IMG/VR virus record: IMGVR_UViG_3300045988_123188
DNA length: 29,910 bases
Strand: one strand, 5' to 3'
Origin: a virus
Taxonomy: Duplodnaviria > Heunggongvirae > Uroviricota > Caudoviricetes
The first letter of the stretch is position 1, and every line of letters begins with the position of its first letter. The position numbers were made by a program, and so were the translations under genes. The notes beneath the pieces were generated by a model, which saw nothing but the letters and a program-made list of their open reading frames with translations, was not told where the DNA came from and ran no database searches. Shown here one piece after another: positions 9,871 through 24,800 of this stretch.

Positions 9871-9888
9871 GTGCGACCACGGTCGCAC
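9871..9888. promoter_or_regulatory. sopC-like palindrome GTGCGACCACGGTCGCAC (putative SopB/ParB centromere site), ~25 bp upstream of the 286-aa gene start
   Basis: 8-bp inverted repeats around a 2-bp AC core; one of five near-identical copies; resembles the F sopC motif TGGGACCACGGTCCCA as I recall it. Confidence 0.6.
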
Positions 9889-10090: not shown

Positions 10091-10108
10091 GTGCGACCAC
10101 GGTCGCAA
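10091..10108. promoter_or_regulatory. sopC-like palindrome GTGCGACCACGGTCGCAA
   Basis: Second copy, directly abutting repeat B. Confidence 0.6.
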
Positions 10109-11776: not shown

Positions 11777-11871
11777 ATCTCTTACCTCGCAATAGTTGCT
11801 GAGGTTTCGGCTTGGAAACTATATGGCGAAAATAACCCCTACCAAAAACGGCAGGGGAATATATTCTCCAG

Positions 11872-12948
11872 TTACTCAAATAACTTTTTCACTTCATCAA
11901 CTGTCTGAAGATAACGTTCGCCCTCAATCTCAATACCTATTGCCTGACGTCCTAACTTCAGCGCAGCTTTAATAGTTGAGCCTGATCCCATAAAGAAATC
12001 GGCAACGATATCTCCGGGGCGTGAACTACTCTTTATAATATGTTCCATCATCGCTGCAGGTTTTTCACATGGGTGCTTGCCAGGATAATATTGCACAGGA
12101 GGAAACTCCCATACATCGGTATAAGGTACATCAGCAGTAACATGAAATGGACGGCGTAAATTTTCATACTGAGCCTTCAAATCATCATACTGCTTCTTTA
12201 CTTCCTCATAATGCAATTTCAGATCGCTATAACGCTTTTCATGTTCTGAATAATCAACATTAAAAGGATATGGACACGGGACACCGAGTGAATCTGCCTT
12301 CCTGCGAAATAATTCGCATAGTTTATTAAAATCAATTAATGATGGAAGCCGCCACTGCGAATAAGAAAACCAGTGTGAACACATCTGCTTTCCTGTCGCT
12401 GAATTAATGTCTGCGGCTGATATATCTAACTGACGGCGAGCCAGCGAAAAAGCATCAATTAGTGGAGAAAAAATATTTTTTCTTAAATCTGCACATTTTG
12501 AAGCATAACCTGACTGACCTTTAGCATAACCTGACGCGCCGTAATGCTCTGCAAATAATATTCTTTCAGTAGCAGGAAAATAAGCCCTTAAACTTTCTTT
12601 ATGACAACCGCGCCACATACCACTTGGTTTAGCCCAAATGATATGGTTCAGAACATTGAAACGGTCGCGAGTTAATAATTCAATTTTTGACGCAAGGCGA
12701 GAGCCGGTAAACATATACAGGCTGCCATTAGGGGCCAATATCCGCCAAAATTCTGCCAAAAATTCGTCAATCCACCCCAAAAAGTCAGCATCGCTATCCC
12801 ACTGGTTATCCCATGCGTTAGCCTTTACGCCGAAGTATGGTGGGTCTGTTGCAATCAAATTGACCGAGTTATCAGGGATGGTTTTGATAAATTGCAGAGA
12901 ATCTGCGCAAACGAGTTGTGCGCCATGAATATTAGTGGTTTTGAACAT
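11872..12948 (-). CDS. DNA N6-adenine/N4-cytosine methyltransferase, no partner endonuclease evident
   Basis: DPPY motif (LIATDPPYFG) near the N-terminus and FMGSGST S-adenosylmethionine-binding motif near the C-terminus; ATG at 12948 (MFKTTNIHGAQL...). Confidence 0.8.
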   Translation of the reverse strand: MFKTTNIHGAQLVCADSLQFIKTIPDNSVNLIATDPPYFGVKANAWDNQWDSDADFLGWIDEFLAEFWRILAPNGSLYMFTGSRLASKIELLTRDRFNVLNHIIWAKPSGMWRGCHKESLRAYFPATERILFAEHYGASGYAKGQSGYASKCADLRKNIFSPLIDAFSLARRQLDISAADINSATGKQMCSHWFSYSQWRLPSLIDFNKLCELFRRKADSLGVPCPYPFNVDYSEHEKRYSDLKLHYEEVKKQYDDLKAQYENLRRPFHVTADVPYTDVWEFPPVQYYPGKHPCEKPAAMMEHIIKSSSRPGDIVADFFMGSGSTIKAALKLGRQAIGIEIEGERYLQTVDEVKKLFE

Positions 12949-13083
12949 AGCTATTATTTTTTTGCCTGGGTAAGCTAACCCGGCGATGCGCATCGCGGGT
13001 GGGCTTTAGGTTCAGCCTATAGCTCTGGCATGGGTTGACCGCAGGACAAGCTGCAACTTGTCCTGCGCCCACTTTTCAGGCAC

Positions 13084-13110
13084 AAAAAAACCGCCATAAA
13101 GGCGGCTTGT
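13084..13110 (-). terminator. rho-independent terminator (minus strand) in the late-operon leader, tR'-like
   Basis: Minus strand reads CAAGCCGCCTTTATGGCGGTTTTTTTGTG: GC stem, 6-nt loop, T7 tract. Confidence 0.55.
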
Positions 13111-13144
13111 TGGCTGTTGGGTACAAAAAACCCAACTTAACAAA

Positions 13145-13173
13145 ACAATAACTAAAAACCGTCATTTTGCCAA
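13145..13173 (-). promoter_or_regulatory. candidate sigma70 late promoter (PR'-like): TTGGCA -35, 17-bp spacer, TATTGT -10
   Basis: Read on the minus strand; lies ~40-60 bp upstream of the terminator hairpin, the geometry of lambda PR'/qut/tR'. Confidence 0.35.
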
Positions 13174-13192
13174 GCTTTTTCGTTTTTGTGCT

Positions 13193-13210
13193 GTGCGACC
13201 GTGGTCGCAC
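13193..13210. promoter_or_regulatory. sopC-like palindrome GTGCGACCGTGGTCGCAC (inverted core GT)
   Basis: Third copy, between the small-gene cluster and the late promoter. Confidence 0.6.
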
Positions 13211-13215
13211 AGCTT

Positions 13216-13443
13216 TTAGAAAGTTGCCTGCTTATATTCATCGGTCAAAGAATATCGACCAGATCCGCTACGCTTTGCAACCCCAAAACAGATCATCTGT
13301 TCGATGATAAATTCAACGGCAGCTTGACTCAAAAAACAGGCTTCGCTTAACTCTTTCAGGGAAATGCGTGGGTATCCACGCATAACACATTCCACACTCA
13401 GGGCCGCTTCAGTCATATTTCCACGAATTTCATTAATATTCAT
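13216..13443 (-). CDS. hypothetical small protein (75 aa)
   Basis: Track ORF MNINEIRGNMTEAALSVECVMRGYPRISLKELSEA...; immediately upstream of the late promoter; no recognisable domain. Confidence 0.4.
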   Translation of the reverse strand: MNINEIRGNMTEAALSVECVMRGYPRISLKELSEACFLSQAAVEFIIEQMICFGVAKRSGSGRYSLTDEYKQATF

Positions 13444-13456
13444 AACGCCTCTCTAA

Positions 13457-13696
13457 TCAATCTTGAAACTGGAAATCAACATCAGCCATAAAGCGGTTCA
13501 ACTCAGCCAGTTTTGGCCCCATAGTCCCAACTAAGCGACCAGCCAGTCGGTCTGTTAGGTTGGTACTGTTGAAACCATATTCCTTTTCGAAACGTTCAAC
13601 CTTCTGCCACAACTCATACAGTTCGTTAGCTATCTCCGCAACATCGTCGCGCATTTTTTCGTTACCTTGATAATTCATAATATCCTCCAAATTCAT
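13457..13696 (-). CDS. hypothetical small protein (79 aa)
   Basis: Track ORF MNLEDIMNYQGNEKMRDDVAEIANELYELWQK... Confidence 0.4.
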   Translation of the reverse strand: MNLEDIMNYQGNEKMRDDVAEIANELYELWQKVERFEKEYGFNSTNLTDRLAGRLVGTMGPKLAELNRFMADVDFQFQD

Positions 13697-13843
13697 ATAG
13701 TTAGTGGGTTATTGCCTCTCAATGACACGAACTGTAACTCTGCCAAACGAACACATCCAGTGTTATTTTTCGCTTTTTAGTGAAATTTTTAATTTGCGTT
13801 GTTTTCTTGTTTTGGTGTATTTTATGGATATGGAGGCTATAAT

Positions 13844-14155
13844 ATGTTTAACGTGATAACCCACCCTGCAGCACTGGATGAACTGCTTGAACTACCAGAT
13901 GATTTGCGAGGTCGCATGACCAGATTAATTGAGCGACTGGAGAAAGAAGGCAACAAACTGAAGATGCCCCATAGCCGTGTAATAGGTGGAGGGCTTTTTG
14001 AACTACGAGTAGGGGATAAAAACATCGCAAGAACGCTGTACGCCTACGCGACTGGTAACGAAATTTATCTATTGCATGCATTTGTAAAAAAGACACAGAA
14101 AACACCGGTGAAGGCTATCGAAATCGCCAGAACTCGCCTGAAGGAGATGAACTGA
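13844..14155 (+). CDS. type II toxin, RelE/ParE superfamily, Gp49-like/HigB-like
   Basis: ATG at 13844 with GGAGG SD (MFNVITHPAALDELLELPDDLRGRMTRLIERLEKEG...); ~100 aa; stop overlaps the start of the downstream HTH gene (TGATG). Confidence 0.7.
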   Translation: MFNVITHPAALDELLELPDDLRGRMTRLIERLEKEGNKLKMPHSRVIGGGLFELRVGDKNIARTLYAYATGNEIYLLHAFVKKTQKTPVKAIEIARTRLKEMN

Positions 14156-14442
14156 TGAAAGCGAAAGGCATCCCGTTTAACGAAGTAAAAGAAAAACTCC
14201 TCAACACTCCAGAAGCCGTCAAAGGATATGAAGAGGCCGACAAAGAGCTGGAGATGGTCGAAATGCTATACGAAATGAGGGAAAGAGCAGGTTTAACGAA
14301 ATCAGCTCTGGCTGAACGAATGGGGTTGCGACCGTCAGCCATCAGCCGCCTGGAAAGCAATCCTTTAGGGGCAAGTATGAAAACTTTGGCTAAATATGCT
14401 CATGCCTGCGGCGCAACCATCGATATTCGCGCTGTTTATTAA
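14155..14442 (+). CDS. HTH (XRE-family) antitoxin, HigA-like
   Basis: 95 aa with HTH signature TKSALAERMGLRPSAISRLE; translationally coupled to the toxin; toxin-first order typical of HigBA. Confidence 0.7.
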   Translation: MKAKGIPFNEVKEKLLNTPEAVKGYEEADKELEMVEMLYEMRERAGLTKSALAERMGLRPSAISRLESNPLGASMKTLAKYAHACGATIDIRAVY

Positions 14443-14484: not shown

Positions 14485-14688
14485 TCAATGATGTGAACGC
14501 TCAACAGCGATAGTTTTCTGACAATGCTGGGCAATCTCTCGCGACATGTTGATGAGTCGTGAAACCTCACCAATATGTAGGCTGGCTTCTGGAGAAGCCA
14601 GGGTGACGCTAACCAGATCCAGAACGGCGTCAATATCTCTTAAATTTGAATCGAGTTGTTCAAGAGTTGATACGGCTGCTTCAGACAT
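14485..14688 (-). CDS. hypothetical small protein (67 aa)
   Basis: Track ORF with ATG confirmed; weak SD. Confidence 0.35.
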   Translation of the reverse strand: MSEAAVSTLEQLDSNLRDIDAVLDLVSVTLASPEASLHIGEVSRLINMSREIAQHCQKTIAVERSHH

Positions 14689-14770
14689 TAGATCTCATAC
14701 CATTTAACTAAAAAAGGTTATTTATACTGTATAAAATTACAGGTTAAAACTCAAACTTGACGGTCAATTT

Positions 14771-15013
14771 TCAATGAATTAACTGCGTAAACTGCTGTGT
14801 GGCCCGATACTTATGCTCTCTCCCTATGCCACGATCAACTTTCTCAAGAAGTCCAGTACGGACAGCAGAATCAAGCATCCTTTTAACAATTCTGCTATTT
14901 AACCCAACATCAAAAGCAAGCATCGAAGCGAAAACAAACCCATCACCACCATCAGAAAAGCTCTTTTCGCTCCGTTTTCGTATCATTTCAAAAAGCAATG
15001 CCTTTTTATCCAT
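14771..15013 (-). CDS. hypothetical small protein (80 aa), possible winged-helix DNA-binding fold
   Basis: ATG with GGAGGG SD. Confidence 0.45.
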   Translation of the reverse strand: MDKKALLFEMIRKRSEKSFSDGGDGFVFASMLAFDVGLNSRIVKRMLDSAVRTGLLEKVDRGIGREHKYRATQQFTQLIH

Positions 15014-15031
15014 TTATCCCTCCGTGACCAG

Positions 15032-15358
15032 TCACGCTTTGAGCGCAAGTTTCAGCCTCGTGGTTGTAAGGTGGCATGACCCTTCGCCATCAAAAATGCA
15101 TTCTGAAACAGGCATTTTTTGACCACATCGCGGGCAAGTAGTAGATAGCTGCTTCTGCAGCTCCTTATAGTTTTTCCTGATCAGCAAACCAATGACTTCG
15201 TTCTCCGAATATGGAACTCGCCCTGGTCTACGCAATACACAAATTTCCCCCAACATACGTAACTCGTCAGGTTCTAGAATCCACTCCCGTCTTGATGTGC
15301 CTTCCTTCTTCAACCGTTCCCTGCGTCTCCTTTGCCGTTCTGCCGGTGTCAGCGCCAT
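15032..15358 (-). CDS. hypothetical protein (108 aa), Arg-rich N-terminus, CPRCG motif
   Basis: ATG with AGGAGG SD. Confidence 0.5.
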   Translation of the reverse strand: MALTPAERQRRRRERLKKEGTSRREWILEPDELRMLGEICVLRRPGRVPYSENEVIGLLIRKNYKELQKQLSTTCPRCGQKMPVSECIFDGEGSCHLTTTRLKLALKA

Positions 15359-15373
15359 AAATCCTCCTGAAAA

Positions 15374-15826
15374 TTACTTAACCCAATTAACTACACCGCC
15401 AGCGACCACAACCGCCCTTTCACAGTCACGCTCATATCTCAAAGGTTGAAATACACCATCAATAAAATATTTATCTCCACCAAACGCTGCAGGAAGTGAA
15501 ACAGAAAACTGAACATGACCATCCGGAGTTACCGGAGAGTTGCCAGCCTCATACGCCACACGCATCCAGTGCAGAAGCGTTTCAGTGCTCACACAGCCGC
15601 AATCAACATCAATTTTGCCGTGCTGCCGTTCCAGCCATTGCTCAAAAGTTAACTTGTAAGTTTGGCTTACAGGTTCTGCACTATCAGCTTCGCGCCGCTT
15701 CTGTAGCTCTGCTGCCATCGCTCTCACGACTTCAACTGGTGCCCTTGCAGCAAACTCTATGTTGGTGATCAGCTCATTAAGATATTGCTCGCCTGGATAC
15801 TGTTTCTTATCGGTTATAGTGGTCAT
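15374..15826 (-). CDS. hypothetical protein (150 aa)
   Basis: Start at internal ATG (MTTITDKKQYPGEQY...) with AAGGAGAGTGAT SD. Confidence 0.5.
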   Translation of the reverse strand: MTTITDKKQYPGEQYLNELITNIEFAARAPVEVVRAMAAELQKRREADSAEPVSQTYKLTFEQWLERQHGKIDVDCGCVSTETLLHWMRVAYEAGNSPVTPDGHVQFSVSLPAAFGGDKYFIDGVFQPLRYERDCERAVVVAGGVVNWVK

Positions 15827-15827
15827 A

Positions 15828-16214
15828 TCACTCTCCTTTTCCCTGAAGCATAGCAGCGCGGCAGGCATTCCAGCCTCTCACCTCTGCAATAGCGGCAACA
15901 GCATCAACCGCGTACATGCTAAGAGGATTAGGCATTGGTTTTTCTTCCGGTACTACTGGAACGGGTGGAGCGGCGTAGACCTCAATAATTCCATTATCAA
16001 TAGGCCATTCTCCATCCTTGAGGTAGTCACTTGTGCCGTCAACTTGCTGTTCTGCAATGTGGAATGCACCTATTGGTTTTGCTTCCAGCGATGCCAGAGC
16101 AATTCGTGCCAGTTCTTCCGCTTCTTCTGCTGGCAGTACAACGTTGCTACCAGGTCCGTATGTTTCGCGCCACTGTTTGATTGTCAGTAGTCGCTCTTTG
16201 GTAATAGTGGTCAT
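15828..16214 (-). CDS. hypothetical protein (128 aa)
   Basis: MTTITKERLLTIKQW...; ATG with AGGAG SD; 1-nt spacing to the downstream gene. Confidence 0.5.
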   Translation of the reverse strand: MTTITKERLLTIKQWRETYGPGSNVVLPAEEAEELARIALASLEAKPIGAFHIAEQQVDGTSDYLKDGEWPIDNGIIEVYAAPPVPVVPEEKPMPNPLSMYAVDAVAAIAEVRGWNACRAAMLQGKGE

Positions 16215-16224
16215 GTGTTACTCC

Positions 16225-16488
16225 TTAACCCGCAGTGCTTTCAACTGATGAGGGGAACAAAATCCTTTCATCAAATCCGGCATTCATATCATGGACAGCA
16301 ACACACCAATCCATCGACGAACGATTATCAAGAGCCTCCATGATTTCATCCATGCGGCGCAGGTCATACAGGTAAATGCTTTTATCGCCAATGGTGTAAA
16401 AACCAATTTTTTTCGGTGATGGGCAGCGATCAAGAACGTCCTGTAATTCGTTCAACCATGCCCGTTCTTTTTTTGTTAAAGTTGCCAT
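16225..16488 (-). CDS. hypothetical small protein (87 aa)
   Basis: Start at internal ATG (MATLTKKERAW...) preceded by the same AAGGAGAGTGAT SD block as the gene at 15826. Confidence 0.5.
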   Translation of the reverse strand: MATLTKKERAWLNELQDVLDRCPSPKKIGFYTIGDKSIYLYDLRRMDEIMEALDNRSSMDWCVAVHDMNAGFDERILFPSSVESTAG

Positions 16489-16489
16489 A

Positions 16490-17038
16490 TCACTCTCCTT
16501 TGATGCGAATGCCTGTTGCAATGCTGTTTATGATGCTGTCAGTGCATGGGGTAGAAAGCTGGGCATCTCCAGCAATTTTCATGACCTCAACATCTGCATA
16601 TCGAATACCGAGGTGTATCAGACCGGCTATGCCTGACTTAAGCCGAGCATTTTCCATAAATAGAACTTTTGCCCGCTGTTTTTCTGCTTCAAGCTCAACG
16701 CGCAGCTTCCCTACCGTTAGCGCAATATCCTCGTTCTCCTTGTCGCGGGATTTTATGTATTGCTGGTTTCTTTCCCGTTCATCCAGTAGTGCCAGCGCAA
16801 CATTTGGATTAAAGGCAGCAATAAATTCAGCGTTTGCGTAAGCCTGAGCATCTGTTTCAACCAGGCAGTTAACATGACATTCTGCAATCACGCCACCGGG
16901 TTCTCCTTTCCATTTTTGGCAAACAAAAACTCCTGTTAAATTGCCGTGCTGGTTAACAGATGTATGCCCTACGATGTAGCTCCCTTTCGTTGCCTTTTCT
17001 GCCGCATCACGCAGTGCCTGATAATTAATTTCGCTCAC
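16490..17038 (-). CDS. Ead/Ea22-like family protein
   Basis: Contains AEFIAAFNPNVALALLDE plus a coiled-coil, the Ea22-like signature by recall; GTG start with GGAGG SD. Confidence 0.55.
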   Translation of the reverse strand: MSEINYQALRDAAEKATKGSYIVGHTSVNQHGNLTGVFVCQKWKGEPGGVIAECHVNCLVETDAQAYANAEFIAAFNPNVALALLDERERNQQYIKSRDKENEDIALTVGKLRVELEAEKQRAKVLFMENARLKSGIAGLIHLGIRYADVEVMKIAGDAQLSTPCTDSIINSIATGIRIKGE

Positions 17039-17259
17039 TCTTCATCCTCCAAGTCGGCAACGGCGTCCATCACATCAGAACCGCGAATAACCTCAAAAGC
17101 ACGGCAGGCCATTTGAAATACCAGTTGCTCTTGCGGGTGAGGAGACTCCCAATATTTGAAGCCTGGGCGATGCGTGTACCCCATCATTGAATAAAAATCA
17201 CCAGCAAGCTTAATCGCGGCATCGACAAGCTCTCTGTTAGTCATTCTTTTTCCGCTCAC
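17035..17259 (-). CDS. hypothetical small protein (74 aa)
   Basis: GTG start with AGGAGG SD; 4-nt overlap with the downstream gene. Confidence 0.45.
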   Translation of the reverse strand: MSGKRMTNRELVDAAIKLAGDFYSMMGYTHRPGFKYWESPHPQEQLVFQMACRAFEVIRGSDVMDAVADLEDEE

Positions 17260-17551
17260 TGGCTGCCTCCTTTACTGGGCTTTCGAATGTATCAAACTCA
17301 AACAACTTAACTACGTCATCAAACAGGACATAATCGCCATCAGAATCTTCAGTCATGTCAGCGCCACAATCCTGACCGAACGAGTCACAACCATCCATAT
17401 CAAGCTCGTATCGCTTGAGTTTTGCGATATTTGATAAATTCAGCGCCAGTACAGCAAGGTCATAAACCTCATCAGCGGTATACCCGGCACCATGCCCATA
17501 CATTTCAATACGGGATATGATTTCTTCTACACGTTGTTTTGTGATCGTCAT
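17237..17551 (-). CDS. hypothetical acidic protein (104 aa)
   Basis: ATG confirmed; GGAAGGTGAG SD. Confidence 0.45.
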   Translation of the reverse strand: MTITKQRVEEIISRIEMYGHGAGYTADEVYDLAVLALNLSNIAKLKRYELDMDGCDSFGQDCGADMTEDSDGDYVLFDDVVKLFEFDTFESPVKEAASERKKND

Positions 17552-18180
17552 TTTTGCTCACCTTCCTGTTCTTCCAGAAAAATACGCATAGCCTCAAGCA
17601 TCTCTTCGGTATCATACGGAGACAGCTTGTCACGCAGGATGTGTTCAATGCTGTTAATGAACTTGCGGATTGCTTTGCGTTCAATTTCAGCCAGGAAAGC
17701 GTCGGTGGCTGGGGTTTCCGTGAAGTTGTCCTCCCAACCGTAGTACTCCTGACGACAGAAGTTATTAAATTCCTTCTCCGACTGTTTAAGCCCCGCATTC
17801 TCCGCCGCCAGCGCCGTGCGATTACCCTCCAGCTCTGCAATGCGCTGTTTTGCGGCATCCAGTTCAATCGACAATTTTTCCAACTGCTCTTTATGCTTCT
17901 TATATTCCTGATATGCGTGCCAAGACTGACCTTTGCGCACACTATCAGTGATATCAGCAACCTGCTCTGGTGTTAGCGTGGTCAGTGGCTGTGATGGAAA
18001 AATCAGCACTTTCCCGGAATCCCAATCAAAACCAGCGTGAATTGACTGAACCTCAACTGAGGGTGTTGAACCAATGCTGCCAGGCGAATGAATAACGATT
18101 GTTACATCCATATCGCGACGATGGCTGTGGTTGTTGGACAAAATACGATTCACCAACTCAGAAAATTTGGAAAATTTCAT
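17548..18180 (-). CDS. hypothetical protein (210 aa) with central coiled-coil, possibly Ea22-like
   Basis: ATG confirmed; coiled-coil segment LEKLSIELDAAKQRIAELEGNRTALAAENAGLKQSEKE. Confidence 0.45.
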   Translation of the reverse strand: MKFSKFSELVNRILSNNHSHRRDMDVTIVIHSPGSIGSTPSVEVQSIHAGFDWDSGKVLIFPSQPLTTLTPEQVADITDSVRKGQSWHAYQEYKKHKEQLEKLSIELDAAKQRIAELEGNRTALAAENAGLKQSEKEFNNFCRQEYYGWEDNFTETPATDAFLAEIERKAIRKFINSIEHILRDKLSPYDTEEMLEAMRIFLEEQEGEQK

Positions 18181-18467
18181 GCTGATTCCCCTTTCTCTGC
18201 TCTCTCCTGTCGGAACATCACTATCATCAGGTCGCCTTTTGTCGCTATCTTGGCTGTTGTGCCTGGCTCAATGCGGCTAAGTTCAAATGCGTCATAGAAC
18301 GCCTCTAACACTTTCTGGCGTCTTTCCTGTTTGCGGTGCTTTCCCCACTGCTTTAGAAAAACAGAGGCCGCCCACTTCCCCGCACTGAACATGATGTAAA
18401 ACCAACCGAGAAGTGCCAGACCGATATTTAGGGCCGTATCGATCGTTATCGTGGTGTCGATATTCAC
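18177..18467 (-). CDS. small membrane protein (96 aa)
   Basis: GTG start with AGGAGG SD; hydrophobic segment ALNIGLALLGWFYIMFSAGKWAASVFL. Confidence 0.45.
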   Translation of the reverse strand: MNIDTTITIDTALNIGLALLGWFYIMFSAGKWAASVFLKQWGKHRKQERRQKVLEAFYDAFELSRIEPGTTAKIATKGDLMIVMFRQERAEKGESA

Positions 18468-18886
18468 TACGCCACCTCCTGTAAATTTCCCTGATAAAAA
18501 GCCAGCACACGCTGCATAACTTCACTTTTCCGGCAATCGTGACAAATCATGTTCAAGCGCCTGTCGTAACGACGTATTTCTCCGTCAGGTAATGACCAGA
18601 TAAGGTCTGGATCAACCACTACCGATTTCTTCGGCTTTACTCTTGATAGTTTTTTACGGGCGTTTTGCCAGTCCTTGCGTGCTTGTGCAGACAGAAATAT
18701 CCCGGAGCCAGAGATATACAAATCACCACTGGCAGCAAGCTCTCTTGATAAACGACTAACAGCACACCGGCTAATACCAGTTTCATCCGCAAGTTGCCTA
18801 ACCGTTCCTCGTCCATTCAGGCGCACGAGTTCCACAATTTGTTTATTCAGTTCTTCCCTCTGTTCTGGTGTAAAAGCCTTTGCCAT
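18467..18886 (-). CDS. HTH-containing putative DNA-binding protein (139 aa)
   Basis: HTH-like segment TVRQLADETGISRCAVSRLSREL; AGGAG SD; start overlaps the upstream gene stop. Confidence 0.5.
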   Translation of the reverse strand: MAKAFTPEQREELNKQIVELVRLNGRGTVRQLADETGISRCAVSRLSRELAASGDLYISGSGIFLSAQARKDWQNARKKLSRVKPKKSVVVDPDLIWSLPDGEIRRYDRRLNMICHDCRKSEVMQRVLAFYQGNLQEVA

Positions 18887-19485
18887 TACGATTCTCCTTG
18901 CCCTTTTACAAGACGGGAGAAAATTGCGGATACATATTTAGCCTGATGAATAGCATCAGCCAAGGCATTGTGTCGTTCGCCATCAAATGGCATATCTTTT
19001 TTAGGATTAAAACCAATAAACTGACCAAGATTAACGATTGTTCGAACATCCTGATCATTAAAATATTCCCACGGACAGGCTAAGCCAACGCGCTCATAAG
19101 CACCGCGTAAAATTACATTATCGAACGTTGCTCCATTTCCCCATACTTTCAACTTTTTTAAATTACATGCATGGCAAGTAATAAAGTGTGATAATTCAAA
19201 AAGTGCATCCTTAATATCAAGGGCATCATTAGTACAAATAGCGGCTCTGGCTTCCTTGCTCTGTTTCAACCACCATAAAATGGTATCACCATCGGCGATA
19301 CCTCCATTCAACATCGAGCTTCTGAGATTCACTGGCACATAAAAAGTAGGACCTAATTCCTCACTTTCTGGAGAAAAAAACACTGCCCCGATAGAAACAA
19401 TTGGAGCACATGTGTTAGTACCCATTGTTTCAAGATCAATCATTACATCAGACCGTTTCCTGTCGTAAATAATCTGATTAGTCAC
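18886..19485 (-). CDS. DEDDh-type 3'-5' exonuclease (DnaQ/RNase T-like)
   Basis: Exo I motif MIDLETMG, Exo II FDNVIL, Exo III ERHNALADA; GTG start with GAGGAG SD. Confidence 0.7.
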   Translation of the reverse strand: MTNQIIYDRKRSDVMIDLETMGTNTCAPIVSIGAVFFSPESEELGPTFYVPVNLRSSMLNGGIADGDTILWWLKQSKEARAAICTNDALDIKDALFELSHFITCHACNLKKLKVWGNGATFDNVILRGAYERVGLACPWEYFNDQDVRTIVNLGQFIGFNPKKDMPFDGERHNALADAIHQAKYVSAIFSRLVKGQGES

Positions 19486-19508
19486 GAATAATTCTCCTCA
19501 ACGTTTAT

Positions 19509-19712
19509 CTATACCCAAATTTTCTGTTGATATGTTCTGGATGGTTTTGGCGTTCTTTCTGATTCAGGTAAATGAACATAAACGCAATATCCATCACCTA
19601 AAAAATCAGAACGAACAACCAGAACTTTCTTACCACGCCGCCGATAAGTATCTGAAAGACGCTCTGCTTCATCATGCGTCATCGGCCCCTGCTTAAATGG
19701 CGTTATTTTCAT
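19509..19712 (-). CDS. hypothetical small protein (67 aa)
   Basis: Start at internal ATG (MKITPFKQGPMTHDEAERL...); the track ORF N-terminal extension MRPWSH is translation of the palindrome. Confidence 0.4.
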   Translation of the reverse strand: MKITPFKQGPMTHDEAERLSDTYRRRGKKVLVVRSDFLGDGYCVYVHLPESERTPKPSRTYQQKIWV

Positions 19713-19938
19713 TTTCTTGTGCGACCACGGTCGCACCCTCTCTGATTTCCAAGTAACGCTTAATCCAAAGATTTTCTATATGCTTATTACCTGGCTGATT
19801 TGATAAATACCAATCGGCAATTACAGACTGCTTATTACTATCTGGTCGTGTCCTGTAACCACAAGTTGGACACCAGATAACATATTCATTTCTTACCCCC
19901 GAATACCTTAATTCTGGCTTCGACGGTTTCCTGAACAT
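19693..19938 (-). CDS. hypothetical zinc-ribbon-like small protein (81 aa, CLCK...CPTCG)
   Basis: Start at internal ATG (MFRKPSKPELRY...). Confidence 0.4.
   Translation of the reverse strand: MFRKPSKPELRYSGVRNEYVIWCPTCGYRTRPDSNKQSVIADWYLSNQPGNKHIENLWIKRYLEIREGATVVAQENENNAI
19719..19736. promoter_or_regulatory. sopC-like palindrome GTGCGACCACGGTCGCAC overlapping the RBS region of the gene at 19712 and the 3' end of the upstream gene
   Basis: Fourth copy. Confidence 0.6.
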
Positions 19939-19945
19939 AACTTGT

Positions 19946-20656
19946 TTACAAAGGCAGAATGGCACTTCCTGCCCGATGGCGTTTGATGATTTCACTGCGC
20001 TTCTCCGCCGCATTTAATAATGCAGTTCGATTTAAGCTCAGACATCGCGACTTAATTAAAAGCCAGCGTTCTTTATAATCTTGTCTCCAGCTATCAATAG
20101 ATATATTCAGTAGAAAACTCAGATGCCTGTCCTGTTCTCTCTCATCAACTGCCTCAGCACACGTAAGTTCTGATTTAACCTGCTGTGCCGCGTAATAAAT
20201 CAATTTCCGCATGGCTTTTTTCGTGGAGGCCTTCATTTTTTTAAAGCCGCCCCCCGAATGAGCAACCAGAAAATCAAGCCATAACCACTGACAAACAATC
20301 ACATCATTGTTGTAATCAGGCTTGCATCCGTAGCAATAATAAAGCCAGGCTGATTCCTCGTTATTCAACTGACCAATAGCCCTGCGCCAGCTGGCGCTCT
20401 GAAAATCAATATCAGTGAGCAACATTGATGATTGTTTAAATGTTTTCCCCTGGTGGAATCTAACCGGCTCAGCAGGAACGGACACTTCGTATGAGTTATC
20501 ATCCCCCACACTGATTGACCGGACTGGTTTATTGTTAAACCGTCCTGACCTACCGAGACGCATCTGCTCAAGCTGGACCTCCAGAATGCCACGCTGGCGA
20601 TAATGAACATCAGCCAATGCCGTAGAGACGCAGCTGCGTATATACTCAAGCTCCAC
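19946..20656 (-). CDS. hypothetical 236-aa protein first downstream of cro; possible Q-like late antiterminator by position only
   Basis: Track ORF; the Q assignment rests only on my recollection that N15 immB is cB-cro-Q and on the PR'-like leader at ~13.1 kb; no sequence motif recognised. Confidence 0.3.
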   Translation of the reverse strand: MELEYIRSCVSTALADVHYRQRGILEVQLEQMRLGRSGRFNNKPVRSISVGDDNSYEVSVPAEPVRFHQGKTFKQSSMLLTDIDFQSASWRRAIGQLNNEESAWLYYCYGCKPDYNNDVIVCQWLWLDFLVAHSGGGFKKMKASTKKAMRKLIYYAAQQVKSELTCAEAVDEREQDRHLSFLLNISIDSWRQDYKERWLLIKSRCLSLNRTALLNAAEKRSEIIKRHRAGSAILPL

Positions 20657-20867
20657 GCTTACGACTCTCCTTAATCGACTGCTTTACCCGCCGAGTTGTA
20701 AAGTCACTCTTCAGCTTATAAGCAGTACGAACTTCAATATCGCTTTGCCGCAATGAAGGAATCTCTCCAGCGGTTAACCATTGGTAAACAGCTCCGGGTG
20801 TTACACCTACCCCTGCCGCTGCTTTTTCTACACTGCCAAAGTGGCGAATAAGTTCTTCTGGTTTCAT
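20646..20867 (-). CDS. Cro-like HTH repressor
   Basis: Internal ATG (MKPEELIRHFGSVEKAAAGVGVTPGAVYQWLTAGEIP...), 73 aa, HTH; divergent from the repressor gene across an operator-bearing AT-rich region. Confidence 0.65.
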   Translation of the reverse strand: MKPEELIRHFGSVEKAAAGVGVTPGAVYQWLTAGEIPSLRQSDIEVRTAYKLKSDFTTRRVKQSIKESRKRGA

Positions 20868-20897
20868 GTTGTTATTATAAACAATAAACAACAATTA

Positions 20898-21800: not shown

Positions 21801-24800
21801 ATGACATTAAACGATTTCTATGCGGATCGCTTTGGCAGCGATCCGTTCTCGCTAATTGAAGCAGCACGGGATGAACTAACCGAGCTGGCACAGATGGCTG
21901 GTATCAACTGGCCTGCCTGTTCCGACAACATCCAACTCAACCCTCGCGGGGGGGTTGAGCGTTACTCTTCATACAATAAAACATCTCCAGAAGCTCTCGA
22001 AAAGAGCCTGAAAGGACGCGTAGAAATTTACTCCCGGCTGGAACACAGCAAAGGGATTGATTACCCGTTCATTAACTTCGTCCATAAAGGCAGCGATGCT
22101 GGCTCATGGAGCGGTTTCTCCTTCCTGTTTTCTGAATATCGCCGTGAGCAACAACGGAATAATGCGACCGTGGTCGCACAACCGGAAGAAGAACGGGAAA
22201 GAATAGAACGTCAGGCCGAAGCACGTCGTCGCCGTGAAGAACAAAAACGAATTAATGACCTGAAAAACAACCAAATGGACCATGAACGTTTGCTGGGATG
22301 GCTGGCATTCCACAGCGCGTGGGAACATGCTCCGGCTGAAGACGGCTCATGGCCATATGCGATTAAAAAAGGTATTCGTGACGTTTTTAGTTCATGTGAT
22401 GTGCGTCGCGTGACCAGTCACGACAGTGCGAAATGGAGTCGGGGACCAACCACATATATGGCTATCCCTCTGGCTCACCTGGACGGTCGTTACGATGGTC
22501 GTATTGTGGGTTGGCAGCGAATCGACAAACAAGGTGGGAAATACCAGACCAGCGCAGTAACCAGCGGCGATTTCGTCGGTGCCTGCTTTGTTATCGGTGA
22601 GCTGAAAGGGGCGCAAAACATCGCTGTTACAGAAGGTTTTGCTACTGGTGCATCCATCTGGCTTGCCACGAAAAAAGATAAACGCTTTGACGCTGTGGTT
22701 GTCGCTGTATCCGCTAACAACATGGTTCATGTTGTGGAACAACTGGTAAACATGTACCCGGCGGTAAAAATCACCTGCGCACTGGATAATGACCGGAAAT
22801 CTGCCACAGAAGGAAAAGGGAATACCGGCCTGCGGACTGGCTATGAAATCTTATCGAAATTCAACGATGTCCGCTGCGTCTATCCAACTTTTGAAGACGA
22901 TCCGCAAATGGAGTGCAGTGACTTCAACGACCTGCACAAACTACGTGGACTTCGTGAAACAGCACGTCAACTATTTGCAACAGCAAACCGCCTGAAAACC
23001 GGTACTGATTTGCTATCTCTGACGCTCAACCGCCTGAAGACAATTAAGCGGGATAACCGTCGTACTTTTGCCAAAGAGCTGCTGAGAGCGGTGGATATTG
23101 GCATGCTAACCTGCCCGGTTCCTAACAGTCCGTCAGATTTATTTAACATGTTCTGCATCGTTCTGCGTGAAATGGGACTGGAAAATATCTATCGCGCTAC
23201 GGTAAAAGACCACATTGCCCGTCGCCTGAATAAAAAGTGCCGTATTGCCCAGGCTCCGCGCTCTTTCAGCGAACGCATAACTGATCCCAATAAACGCCCT
23301 CAACATATCACCTATAAGCGTTTTGAAACTTCGGTAATGACCGATGATCTCCTGAAGTACGTGCAATCACTACAGGGGATAGTCATCGTCCGTGCTGGTA
23401 TGGGTTCCGGCAAATCTACTGGATTGTTACGACCGTTAATGCATAGCTCAGAACGTGGTATCTCTGTTGCTCACCGTGTCTCCCTTATTGGTGGCCTGTG
23501 GGAAATGATGACAGAAGGAAAAGGTGTAAAAGCCGATATCCTGCACTATCAGGACCCTGGCTATCAGGAAATGGCTCCATACGCCAGTAAACTGACCATC
23601 TGCATAAACTCGATTGTTAAAAACTGCTGGCAACCGTTGATGCGCCAGCACGACTATTTTGGCTTTGACGAGGCCACACAAGGGCTACGTGCCGTTCTTT
23701 CCGGTCGGGCTATGGAAAACCCAGTGGCTGTATTCAATACGCTAATTGACGCGCTGGCCAGAACGGAACAACACCCAATAATGGTGGATGCTGATGCGAA
23801 CGATCTGCTGGTTGACCTGGCTGAACTGGCTATGAAACGCCGTGAAGAACTAGGTTTACCGGCATGGCTGCAGATCCACGTAATTGAATTACCTGTTGAT
23901 GTTCGCAACCGCGAAACAGGTGAGCCAATCCGGGTTTTTTATACAGAAAAAGATCGCATCATGACCGAGGTGGTGAAAGCTGTATCGGATGGCGAAAAAA
24001 TCATGTTGGCCACCGACAGCTCCACCTTTGCAGAAGATGTGACAGCCACCCTGAGAATGCATTTTCCTGGTAAGAAATTTCTGTGTGTAAACCAGAAAAA
24101 CAAACCAGAGCCAGAAGTTGAAGCATTTACCAATCAACCGAAAAAGATGGTCAAAAAATACGACGGCCTGATTTATAGCCCGTCTATTTCATCCGGCGTG
24201 TCGATTGAGCAAAAACATTTTGACCGTCATTTCGGCATGTTCTGTGGTGAAGTTGTACCCAGCGACGCAGTGCAAATGCTACGCCGCGACCGTACAGCAA
24301 AAGAATTTATTATCGGCTTTGATAAAGCTCGTGCAAAACGTGAAACTGACCCGCAAAAAATAGAACGAGCATTCGCCCAGGCATTGCTTGCTACCGCAGG
24401 TATGAACGGTGAACTTACGGATGTCGTTTTCGATGGCGACCGTATATCAATGGGGGTGGCCAATACCGACTTTACCAGGATGAAAATTAAAGCAGCCGCA
24501 ATTGAAGCGACTGCGCGTAACGACTACGCCAGCAACATGATCTGCATCATGCACAGCGACGGTTATAAGGTATCACCGCTGGCCACCGATTATGCTGCGA
24601 ATGATATCGGTAAAGATCTGCGTAAAGAAGCGCGGGATATTGTGTGGGAACAGACACTGGATCTGCACCTCAATACAGAAACTCCACAAGAATCAGAGCG
24701 TGAAAAACTGCTAAAAAAACGCGCGCTGACGCTTGAAGAACAGGCAAAACTTGTCCGCTGGGATATTGAAAACGAACTGAAACTACCGGTTGAAGAAGGC

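Follow-up and report, generated by a model that had tools for sequence, protein, structure and literature searches.

A probable Q-dependent late transcription unit of an N15-type linear plasmid-prophage, with a SopB-type partition site adjoining its promoter

How does a tailed phage switch on its late genes from a leader of the lambda PR'-qut-tR' kind when no gene for a Q antiterminator lies beside that leader? The question is raised by a 29,910-nucleotide (nt) stretch of caudoviricete DNA (IMG/VR record IMGVR_UViG_3300045988_123188; hereinafter the window), in which a promoter, a short hairpin, an intrinsic terminator and a palindrome precede a methyltransferase gene. A preliminary description of this DNA, made from its letters alone, had likened the locus to the lambda late leader with its short 6S transcript, and had pointed to a protein of 236 amino acids (aa) encoded next to cro as the probable antiterminator, acting in trans. 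Positions 13084-13215, on the minus strand, frame the promoter, hairpin, terminator and palindrome exactly. We conclude with high confidence that late transcription of an N15-type linear plasmid-prophage is controlled from this region, which consists of a Q-dependent leader served by a Q protein in trans and an adjoining SopB site.

The region is 98.8% identical to that of the Escherichia phages YDC107_1 (genus Ravinvirus) and PhiR46_1 (for the latter, over window positions 12000-14000), and 73-77% identical to that of N15, phiKO2 and the Enterobacter phage MStein-2023a; the leader is moreover present in 96 non-mobilizable plasmid records from Escherichia, Klebsiella, Enterobacter, Citrobacter and Shigella. 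Accordingly, the window is part of an N15-like linear plasmid-prophage (phage-plasmid). Nearly all genes in this part of it lie on the minus strand, and the gene order in prophage orientation, as read from PhiR46_1, is telL, protelomerase, repA, cI-like repressor, cro, Q, early genes, genes 50-51, the leader, methylase, holin, lysozyme, Rz, terminase, head, tail, ParB, ParA and telR, with the late genes downstream of the leader forming one unbroken block of ~28 kb. The methyltransferase, a DNA N6/N4 enzyme homologous to that of gene 52 (11872-12948, minus strand; PF01555, E=1e-46; phrog_67), is thus the first late gene, as the preliminary description had it, and is followed on the same strand by holin, lysozyme, Rz, terminase and head genes; the methylase, holin and lysozyme were called by Pfam, and the Rz, terminase, portal, head and tail genes via the PhiR46_1 annotation. 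Conservation was assessed over 13-15 lineages comprising the window, N15, phiKO2, KpLi5, PY54, MStein, plasmids of E. fergusonii, Citrobacter, Enterobacter and three Klebsiella species, and four IMG/VR contigs. A scan of viral contigs with GGCGGTTTTTTTRTGCCT recovered an N15-type leader at 10 of 120 loci, the remainder being mostly unrelated terminators.

The candidate sigma-70 promoter (13173-13145, minus strand) was located by a consensus scan and by homology to the N15 and phiKO2 signals, and is the equivalent of N15 'p52': a -35 hexamer TTGGCA (13173-13168) is separated by 17 bp from a -10 hexamer TATTGT (13150-13145). In a gap-free comparison of 13 lineages, anchored on the start-site motif described below, TTG..A of the -35 and TA...T of the -10 (T, A and the final T) are invariant and the spacer is always 17 bp, while flanking and spacer bases vary. 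The PY54-type lineages use other hexamers (TTGCAA/TAAAAT, TTGATA/TACTGT and TTGCAA/TATCAT) with the same 17-bp spacer and in the same register to TAAGTTGG, behaviour that a working promoter should show and a chance match should not. It is on this context and conservation that the case for the promoter rests, since the quality of the match is not significant by itself. An alternative promoter with TAAGTT as its -10 was rejected, there being no -35 at 16-18 bp from it. Between the palindrome and the -35 lies an A-rich tract, CACAAAAACGAAAAAGC (13190-13174, minus strand), which possibly resembles an UP element; its AAAAA directly 5' of the -35 is invariant in a 14-sequence alignment, and in lineages with F-type SopB sites (see below) the tract is absent and the site is 11 bp closer.

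Transcription is predicted to start at about A13138, within a motif, TAAGTTGGG (13139-13131, minus strand; -1 to +8 of the predicted start), that combines a -10-like TAAGTT with a discriminator-like GGG. In all lineages it reads TA(A/T)GTT followed by GG(G/C), and TA.GTTGG is invariant, including in PY54, whose Q is only ~31% identical; this fits recognition by the host sigma-70 rather than by Q. An SDPE (sigma-dependent pause element) has been defined as a -10-like sequence, often accompanied by a discriminator-like sequence, and the element of lambda PR' occupies +1 to +6 with pausing at +16/+17 (bioRxiv 10.1101/2022.01.24.477500). TAAGTTGGG matches this definition and is a candidate SDPE for Q loading. 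The 3' half of the spacer between the -35 and -10, TTTTTAG, is kept among phages whose Q proteins are at least 66% identical and differs in the PY54-type lineages; as it is common only to phages with closely related Q proteins, it offers a weak and at most suggestive pointer to the place where Q may bind, as in lambda.

The short hairpin and the strong terminator that the preliminary description saw downstream are both borne out. Hairpin 1 (GUUGGGU-N7-ACCCAAC, 7 bp; 13136-13116, minus strand) would occupy +3 to +23 of the predicted transcript with a folding free energy (dG) of -8.9 kcal/mol. It forms in 13/13 lineages, with G-U wobble changes and, in PY54 and a further locus (L072), one G-C to C-G swap. 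Overlap with the start-site motif keeps its 5' arm fixed, and the changes in its 3' arm, by wobbles and the one swap, point to pairing at the RNA level; one possibility is that it serves as a 5'-terminal stabilising stem-loop. It is followed by an intrinsic terminator equivalent to tR' (AAGCCGCC-UUUAU-GGCGGUUU and seven U; 13108-13084, minus strand; dG -12.3 kcal/mol), with an 8-bp GC-rich stem and a 5-nt loop. Six or more T follow one another at 52 places when the two strands of the window are taken together, and ranked by the strength of the hairpin directly before the T this terminator comes second; a lenient terminator scan of the window gave no enrichment (12 found, 9.3 expected). The CCGCC/GGCGG of the stem and the T7 run are invariant across lineages and the loop varies. 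The segment 13145-13060 folds better than 200/200 shuffles (z = -4.4), and the predicted terminated RNA would measure ~55 nt here and 53-57 nt across the lineages, every one of which has the same two hairpins (dG -17 to -23 kcal/mol). In PhiR46_1 a coding sequence of 53 aa (equivalent to window 13173-13012) is annotated across promoter and terminator, and is probably spurious.

Which protein, then, would carry polymerase past the terminator? The genes directly upstream do not code for a Q protein, in agreement with the preliminary description: the open reading frames (ORFs) of 75 and 79 aa encode homologues of gp51 (13216-13443, minus strand; phrog_331, with a weak HTH_24 match indicating a weak winged-helix signal) and gp50 (13457-13696, minus strand; phrog_4830), relatives of the former being annotated as 'winged helix-turn-helix domain-containing protein'. 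The TAA stop of the 75-aa ORF (13218-13216, minus strand) lies 3 nt before the palindrome. The protein next to cro, singled out earlier as a candidate, proves to be a full-length member of the Q82 family of antiterminators by sequence comparison. Its gene (19946-20656, minus strand; 236 aa; homologue of N15 gene 40) matches PF06323, which is the Q82 family (PMC9388147), over residues 2-229 on profile positions 2-219 of 220 (E=4e-84; 282 bits, cutoff 25), as well as phrog_304, 'anti-termination protein Q-like' (E=2e-72). The protein is 66.5% identical to N15 gp40 and aligns full-length with the Q of the 82-like phage PhiR47_2 (28% identity over 220 residues, E=8e-29), and WRR, AWL and QW motifs are invariant in alignments of 5 and of 37 sequences. 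In the PhiR46_1 record it is labelled 'hypothetical protein'.

Three Q families, unrelated in sequence, have been described (PMC9388147, PMC7171158), and as a PDB sequence search with this Q returned no match, a comparison of folds was needed. An AlphaFold2 model built from the 37-sequence alignment is mostly of good quality at residues ~85-225 (predicted local distance difference test, pLDDT, mostly 81-93) and poor in the N-terminal 80 residues. The preliminary description had proposed comparing a predicted structure with the Q families; in a Foldseek search of the model against solved structures, the top two matches were Q-lambda in loading complexes, with AlpA also near the top, at E-values that are not significant. 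This modelled likeness is consistent with, and adds nothing new to, the reported resemblance of AlphaFold models of 82Q to lambda Q and AlpA (PMC9371919).

The Q gene shares 11 nt with the end of cro (20646-20894, minus strand; P22_Cro family, PF14549, E=2.5e-22), and 6.8 kb separate it from the late promoter downstream. Upstream of cro are repeated operator-like TTATAGCTGGCT(A/T)TAA boxes, a TATAAT and a divergent gene for a cI-like helix-turn-helix (HTH)/S24 repressor. The cro-Q layout is that of N15 genes 38-40, and suggests that the two genes would be co-transcribed from a repressor-controlled promoter. A Q82-family gene next to cro is kept in every family member examined.

The whole arrangement has been annotated before, so that the novelty implied in the preliminary description falls away; its interpretation is otherwise correct. 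The N15 record AF064539 (Ravin et al. 2000) gives a minus_35 at 41162, a minus_10 at 41185 and a 'putative rho-indep. transcription terminator' at 41229-41250, followed by gene 52 ('possible adenine-specific modification methylase'), a second terminator and the holin, and it labels gp40, encoded beside cro (gp39), as 'late transcription activator', a protein that the earlier record U45242 calls 'Q: antiterminator'. Similarly, the phiKO2 record AY374448 (Casjens et al. 2004) carries, besides a terminator, a 'putative plasmid partitioning site', the -35 and -10 of a 'putative late promoter', and gene 52, labelled 'putative DNA adenine methylase'. In an alignment of the window with both records every element falls in register, and the leader can be aligned with that of PY54 as well. 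The window shares with N15 the order gene 51, inverted repeat, -35 TTGGCA, 17 bp, -10, TAAGTTGGG, hairpin, terminator, methylase, terminator and holin, as well as the Q family encoded beside cro and the core of the inverted repeat; it differs in the leader itself (~75% nucleotide identity), in the length of Q (248 aa in N15, 236 aa here), in the count of inverted-repeat sites (four in the N15 genome, five in the window alone) and in that N15 gene 52 is annotated with a later start. With phiKO2 it shares the partition site, late promoter and terminator at homologous positions and a DNA adenine methylase as first late gene, but the identity is 73-75%, the SDPE-like element reads TATGTTGGG, and neither the hairpin nor the loop has the same sequence.

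The resemblance to lambda PR'-qut-tR' with a 6S-like RNA, drawn in the preliminary description, is supported by the late-gene context and by these homologous features. As in lambda, there are an activator-free promoter, a -10-like element with GGG at the start and a short terminated leader RNA, together with, as proposed here, Q-dependent read-through into lysis and morphogenesis genes. The differences are that Q of lambda belongs to PF03589 and not PF06323, that its gene is adjacent to the late promoter, and that here the first late gene encodes a methylase, a ParB-type site flanks the promoter and the leader is ~55 nt long, where lambda 6S RNA has 194 nt. Phage 82 shares the PF06323 family of Q (full-length alignment, 28% to the PhiR47_2 Q), but its gene is placed directly upstream of the promoter in 82-like phages, and the -10-like GATATT seems to lie further downstream, at ~+7 to +12 (in PhiR47_2); the reported pause at the phage 82 late promoter is at +25. 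The Pseudomonas regulator AlpA, by contrast, has no sequence similarity to Q and, as a regulator of cell death encoded in the chromosome, is no phage late switch. A similarly compact arrangement was also seen in the unrelated Escherichia phage LLS (L017, 1900-2000), which has a Q82-family gene in the classical position: TTGCAA-17-GATATT is joined by a -10-like TAATTT where transcription is predicted to start, the terminator comes ~55 nt downstream, and one of the genes beyond encodes a DNA adenine methylase. The evidence thus supports a unit that is lambda PR'-qut-tR' in function, the N15 late control region by descent, and served by a Q82-family protein.

The palindrome abutting the promoter, termed sopC-like in the preliminary description, is by its sequence a predicted N15-type binding site for SopB (ParB), the equivalent of N15 inverted repeat (IR) 3. 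It consists of the repeat CTGTGCGACC-AC-GGTCGCACAG (10+2+10 bp; 13191-13212), with an exact match to GTGCGACC-NN-GGTCGCAC at 13210-13193, and its core GTGCGACCACGGTCGCAC equals the cores of N15 IR1 and IR4, which are among the IR oligonucleotides used experimentally (PMC7205306, Table 4). The homologous N15 site is IR3 (~41124-41126), the flanks of which match in the same table, and the site also aligns with the 'putative plasmid partitioning site' of phiKO2. Five SopB-type repeats occur in the window (at 9871, 10091, 13193, 19719 and 22162), with 0.01 expected. The further four occupy 9871-9888 and 10091-10108, 220 bp apart; 19719-19736, ~210 bp downstream of Q; and 22162-22179, inside repA; that at 9871 also scores as a terminator-like hairpin. 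The whole N15 genome has four sites (33481, 35932, 41126 and 45563): the repA, post-Q and late-promoter copies of the window match the first three of these in place, and the pair at 9871/10091 seems to be the counterpart of 45563, the IR4 equivalent being doubled here. No sopA or sopB gene lies inside the window, which ends just past the protelomerase gene; PhiR46_1 has ParA and ParB annotated next to telR, and SopA and SopB of N15 are encoded by genes 28 and 27. Like F sopC, IR1-IR4 of N15 and the present sites are inverted repeats of 16-18 bp, (T)G(C/G)GACC-NN-GGTC(G/C)C(A), of the kind recognised by SopB, a type Ia ParB, but sopC is a tandem 43-bp array, whereas here the copies are single and dispersed, this one at a promoter.

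What distinguishes the sites of F and N15 is a single base, the fourth of each half-site (PMC2910045). In PY54 and three IMG/VR lineages it is an F-type site, TGGGACC-NN-GGTCCCA, that occupies the same position relative to the late promoter. A SopB site stands directly upstream of the -35 in every lineage sampled, including after the switch from N15-type to F-type. Measured from the centre of the site to the -35 (loci L001, L003-L008, L010, L013, L063, L072, L080, L083 and L096), the distance is 28.5-29.5 bp in ten lineages with N15-type sites (GCGACC) and exactly 17.5 bp in five loci with F-type sites (GGGACC; PY54 and four IMG/VR contigs), two values about one helical turn apart. Some N15-like plasmids of Klebsiella have the promoter-side site in duplicate, the copies lying 47 bp apart (L014, 370-432, of K. 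pneumoniae pCRKP-1215_3; also L063), which is reminiscent of the 43-bp repeat of F sopC.

Sequence elements, their conservation, gene identities and homology to the annotated features of N15 and phiKO2 are what the analysis establishes directly; from these we infer where transcription starts, that polymerase pauses, that Q loads and where it binds, and in which direction SopB acts. In the mechanism that we propose, the sigma-70 promoter would fire from ~A13138 without any phage factor, TAAGTTGGG would be expected to hold the sigma-containing RNA polymerase in a promoter-proximal pause, and, still without a phage factor, transcription would stop at the intrinsic terminator to yield the two-hairpin RNA of ~55 nt, the presumed counterpart of lambda 6S RNA. 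Once the repressor is inactivated, cro and the overlapping Q82-family gene, 6.8 kb upstream, would be transcribed together, and Q, acting in trans, would load onto the sigma-dependent paused complex. The Q-modified polymerase should then resist the terminator at 13108-13084, a second one at 11857-11836 and the further terminator-like hairpins of the late strand, so that the methylase, lysis, terminase, head and tail genes may be expressed as one long operon. As the palindrome abutting the promoter is by its sequence a SopB site, the partition complex would sit next to the late promoter, and SopB bound beside the -35 may modulate late expression.

Several points weigh against this reading. The promoter matches 9 of 12 consensus positions, and such matches are as frequent in the window as in its shuffles (17 versus 17.4 expected), hence not significant alone. 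The SDPE-like hexamer matches three of six consensus positions, the critical A and the final T among them, and TAWGTTGGG with one mismatch allowed is not enriched in the window (10 against 10.6 expected); the motif is therefore meaningful only via its position and conservation. A Q-binding element was not identifiable next to the candidate pause element, and the start site, the pause and termination are themselves predictions from sequence. Q genes are held to occupy equivalent positions in bacteriophage genomes (PMC9388147), and here Q (20656-19946) is not directly upstream of the late promoter (13173); the same displacement is found in N15, phiKO2, PY54 and PhiR46_1, and the position is better seen as a habit than as a functional requirement, Q being a diffusible protein. 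In the E. fergusonii plasmid the centre of the SopB site is 34.5 bp from the -35, 5-6 bp out of phase with the other lineages. The 2008 N15 study of Ravin, Rech and Lane is said, by its title, to link Sop to late gene expression, and what we say of the nature of that effect derives from this title.

The rival that survives best concerns the palindrome alone, which might be a partition (centromere) site whose place beside the late promoter has no regulatory meaning. N15-type sites are, after all, dispersed (four in N15, five in the window), some of them inside genes such as repA, and the E. fergusonii site is out of phase; yet the site is held directly upstream of the -35 through a change of centromere specificity, at two distances one helical turn apart, and is duplicated there in some Klebsiella plasmids, and the N15 study reportedly ties Sop to late gene expression. 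We therefore consider a purely centromeric role unlikely. The helical phasing of the site with the promoter, and its staying there through the change of specificity, instead suggest that SopB may be a positioned co-factor of late-promoter or Q-loading activity across the whole family and not in N15 alone.

A second question is whether the ~130 nt between the terminator and the methylase ATG, which only read-through transcripts would contain, have a regulatory role. This read-through leader (12949-13083, minus strand) is structured: RNAalifold on ten diverse leaders gave 24 pairs, of which 10 show compensatory double changes, in helices comprising GCCU/GGGC, hairpin 3 (13067-13040), a helix around the invariant ACCCAUGCC, and hairpin 4 (12999-12979). 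Rfam gave nothing at or near gathering scores for this leader or the phiKO2 and PY54 loci, and ARAGORN found no tRNA-like gene in the leader. Such an RNA could, for instance, influence how the methylase is translated, or how the transcript is processed, stabilised or shielded from Rho. In PY54 (L006, ~1585-1600) the third leader hairpin holds a degenerate SopB-like sequence, GTGGGACCGTGGTCAC. The methylase start is probably the ATG at 12948 (358 aa), favoured because the RefSeq/GenBank annotation of relatives and the alignment use the homologous ATG; the longest methylase ORF begins at an ATG at 12993, inside hairpin 4.

This structure, with its covariation in leader and downstream region, could also be read as a sign that the terminator is overcome without Q, whether by a cis-acting put-like leader RNA, by the winged-helix gp51, whose gene abuts the site and whose HTH signal is weak, or by SopB itself, in line with the reported influence of Sop, all the more as the Q gene is 6.8 kb away. 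This we regard as very improbable. A complete Q82-family gene stands beside cro in every family member examined, and the leader bears the hallmarks of Q loading (a -10-like element and GGG at the start, then a terminator); with a put-like RNA that needs no factor, the late genes would be expressed constitutively, and hairpin 1 with the terminator is unlike the two-stem put architecture and has no Rfam match. Less probable still, if narrowly, is that the terminator is a mere end of the gene 50-51 operon and the promoter a chance match, with late genes expressed by upstream read-through or from another promoter: genes 50 and 51 do share the strand, stop 3 nt short of the palindrome and lack a terminator of their own before 13108, and 9/12 promoter matches do occur at chance frequency, but the non-coding TTG..A, TA...T and start-site motif stay invariant in 13 lineages while their neighbours drift, the differing PY54-type hexamers keep the spacer and the register to TAAGTTGG, and the authors of both the N15 and phiKO2 genomes annotated a late promoter here. 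Ending that operon and serving as a late leader are in any case not mutually exclusive functions.

Beyond the Q-dependent leader itself, the second intrinsic terminator lies in the gap between methylase and holin (11836-11857, minus strand; 9-bp stem with six GC pairs), and terminators are annotated in the homologous gap of N15 and phiKO2; additional terminator-like hairpins occur along the late strand. Between the early genes and genes 50-51, a divergent toxin-antitoxin-like pair (13799-14442, plus strand) encodes a Gp49/RelE-ParE-like protein (PF05973, E=4e-29) and an HTH_3 protein, homologues of N15 genes 49 and 48. The early region of the window (~14500-19900) has ~2.1 kb more DNA than that of PhiR46_1, despite the 98.8% identity around the late promoter: the start of Q and the methylase ORF are 7.66 kb apart in the window and 5.52 kb apart in that phage. 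The YDC107_1 record CP025712.1 has no sopAB but two copies, inverted around 36.7 kb, of the genes for protelomerase, the antirepressor region and repA, and looks like an assembly that ran through a hairpin telomere rather than a true genome map.

With the switch itself already known, two features may, in a modest way, be undescribed: the covarying RNA between terminator and methylase, and the two-valued spacing of the SopB site from the -35. That the SopB site is a family-wide co-factor site helically phased with the late promoter and, at the same time, the ~130-nt RNA an unrecognised regulatory element is a tentative joint proposal, which we hold to be possible rather than probable. The main value of the analysis is correct annotation, the deposited records of this lineage being without promoter, terminator and partition-site features here. 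The N15-type switch explains how ~28 kb of late genes come under a two-step control, by repressor and then Q, without an N-like stage; compared with lambda, the cascade is one of two steps and the Q gene has moved into the immunity region. The compact ~55-nt leader could be a convenient substrate for structural work on the loading of Q82-family proteins, a structure named as an open priority (PMC9388147). For the biology of the family, a plasmid partition protein would be placed at a phage late promoter, a link between maintenance and lytic growth that has been studied only in N15, and the phasing, the specificity switch and the duplication of the site provide testable predictions for that link between partition and the lytic programme.

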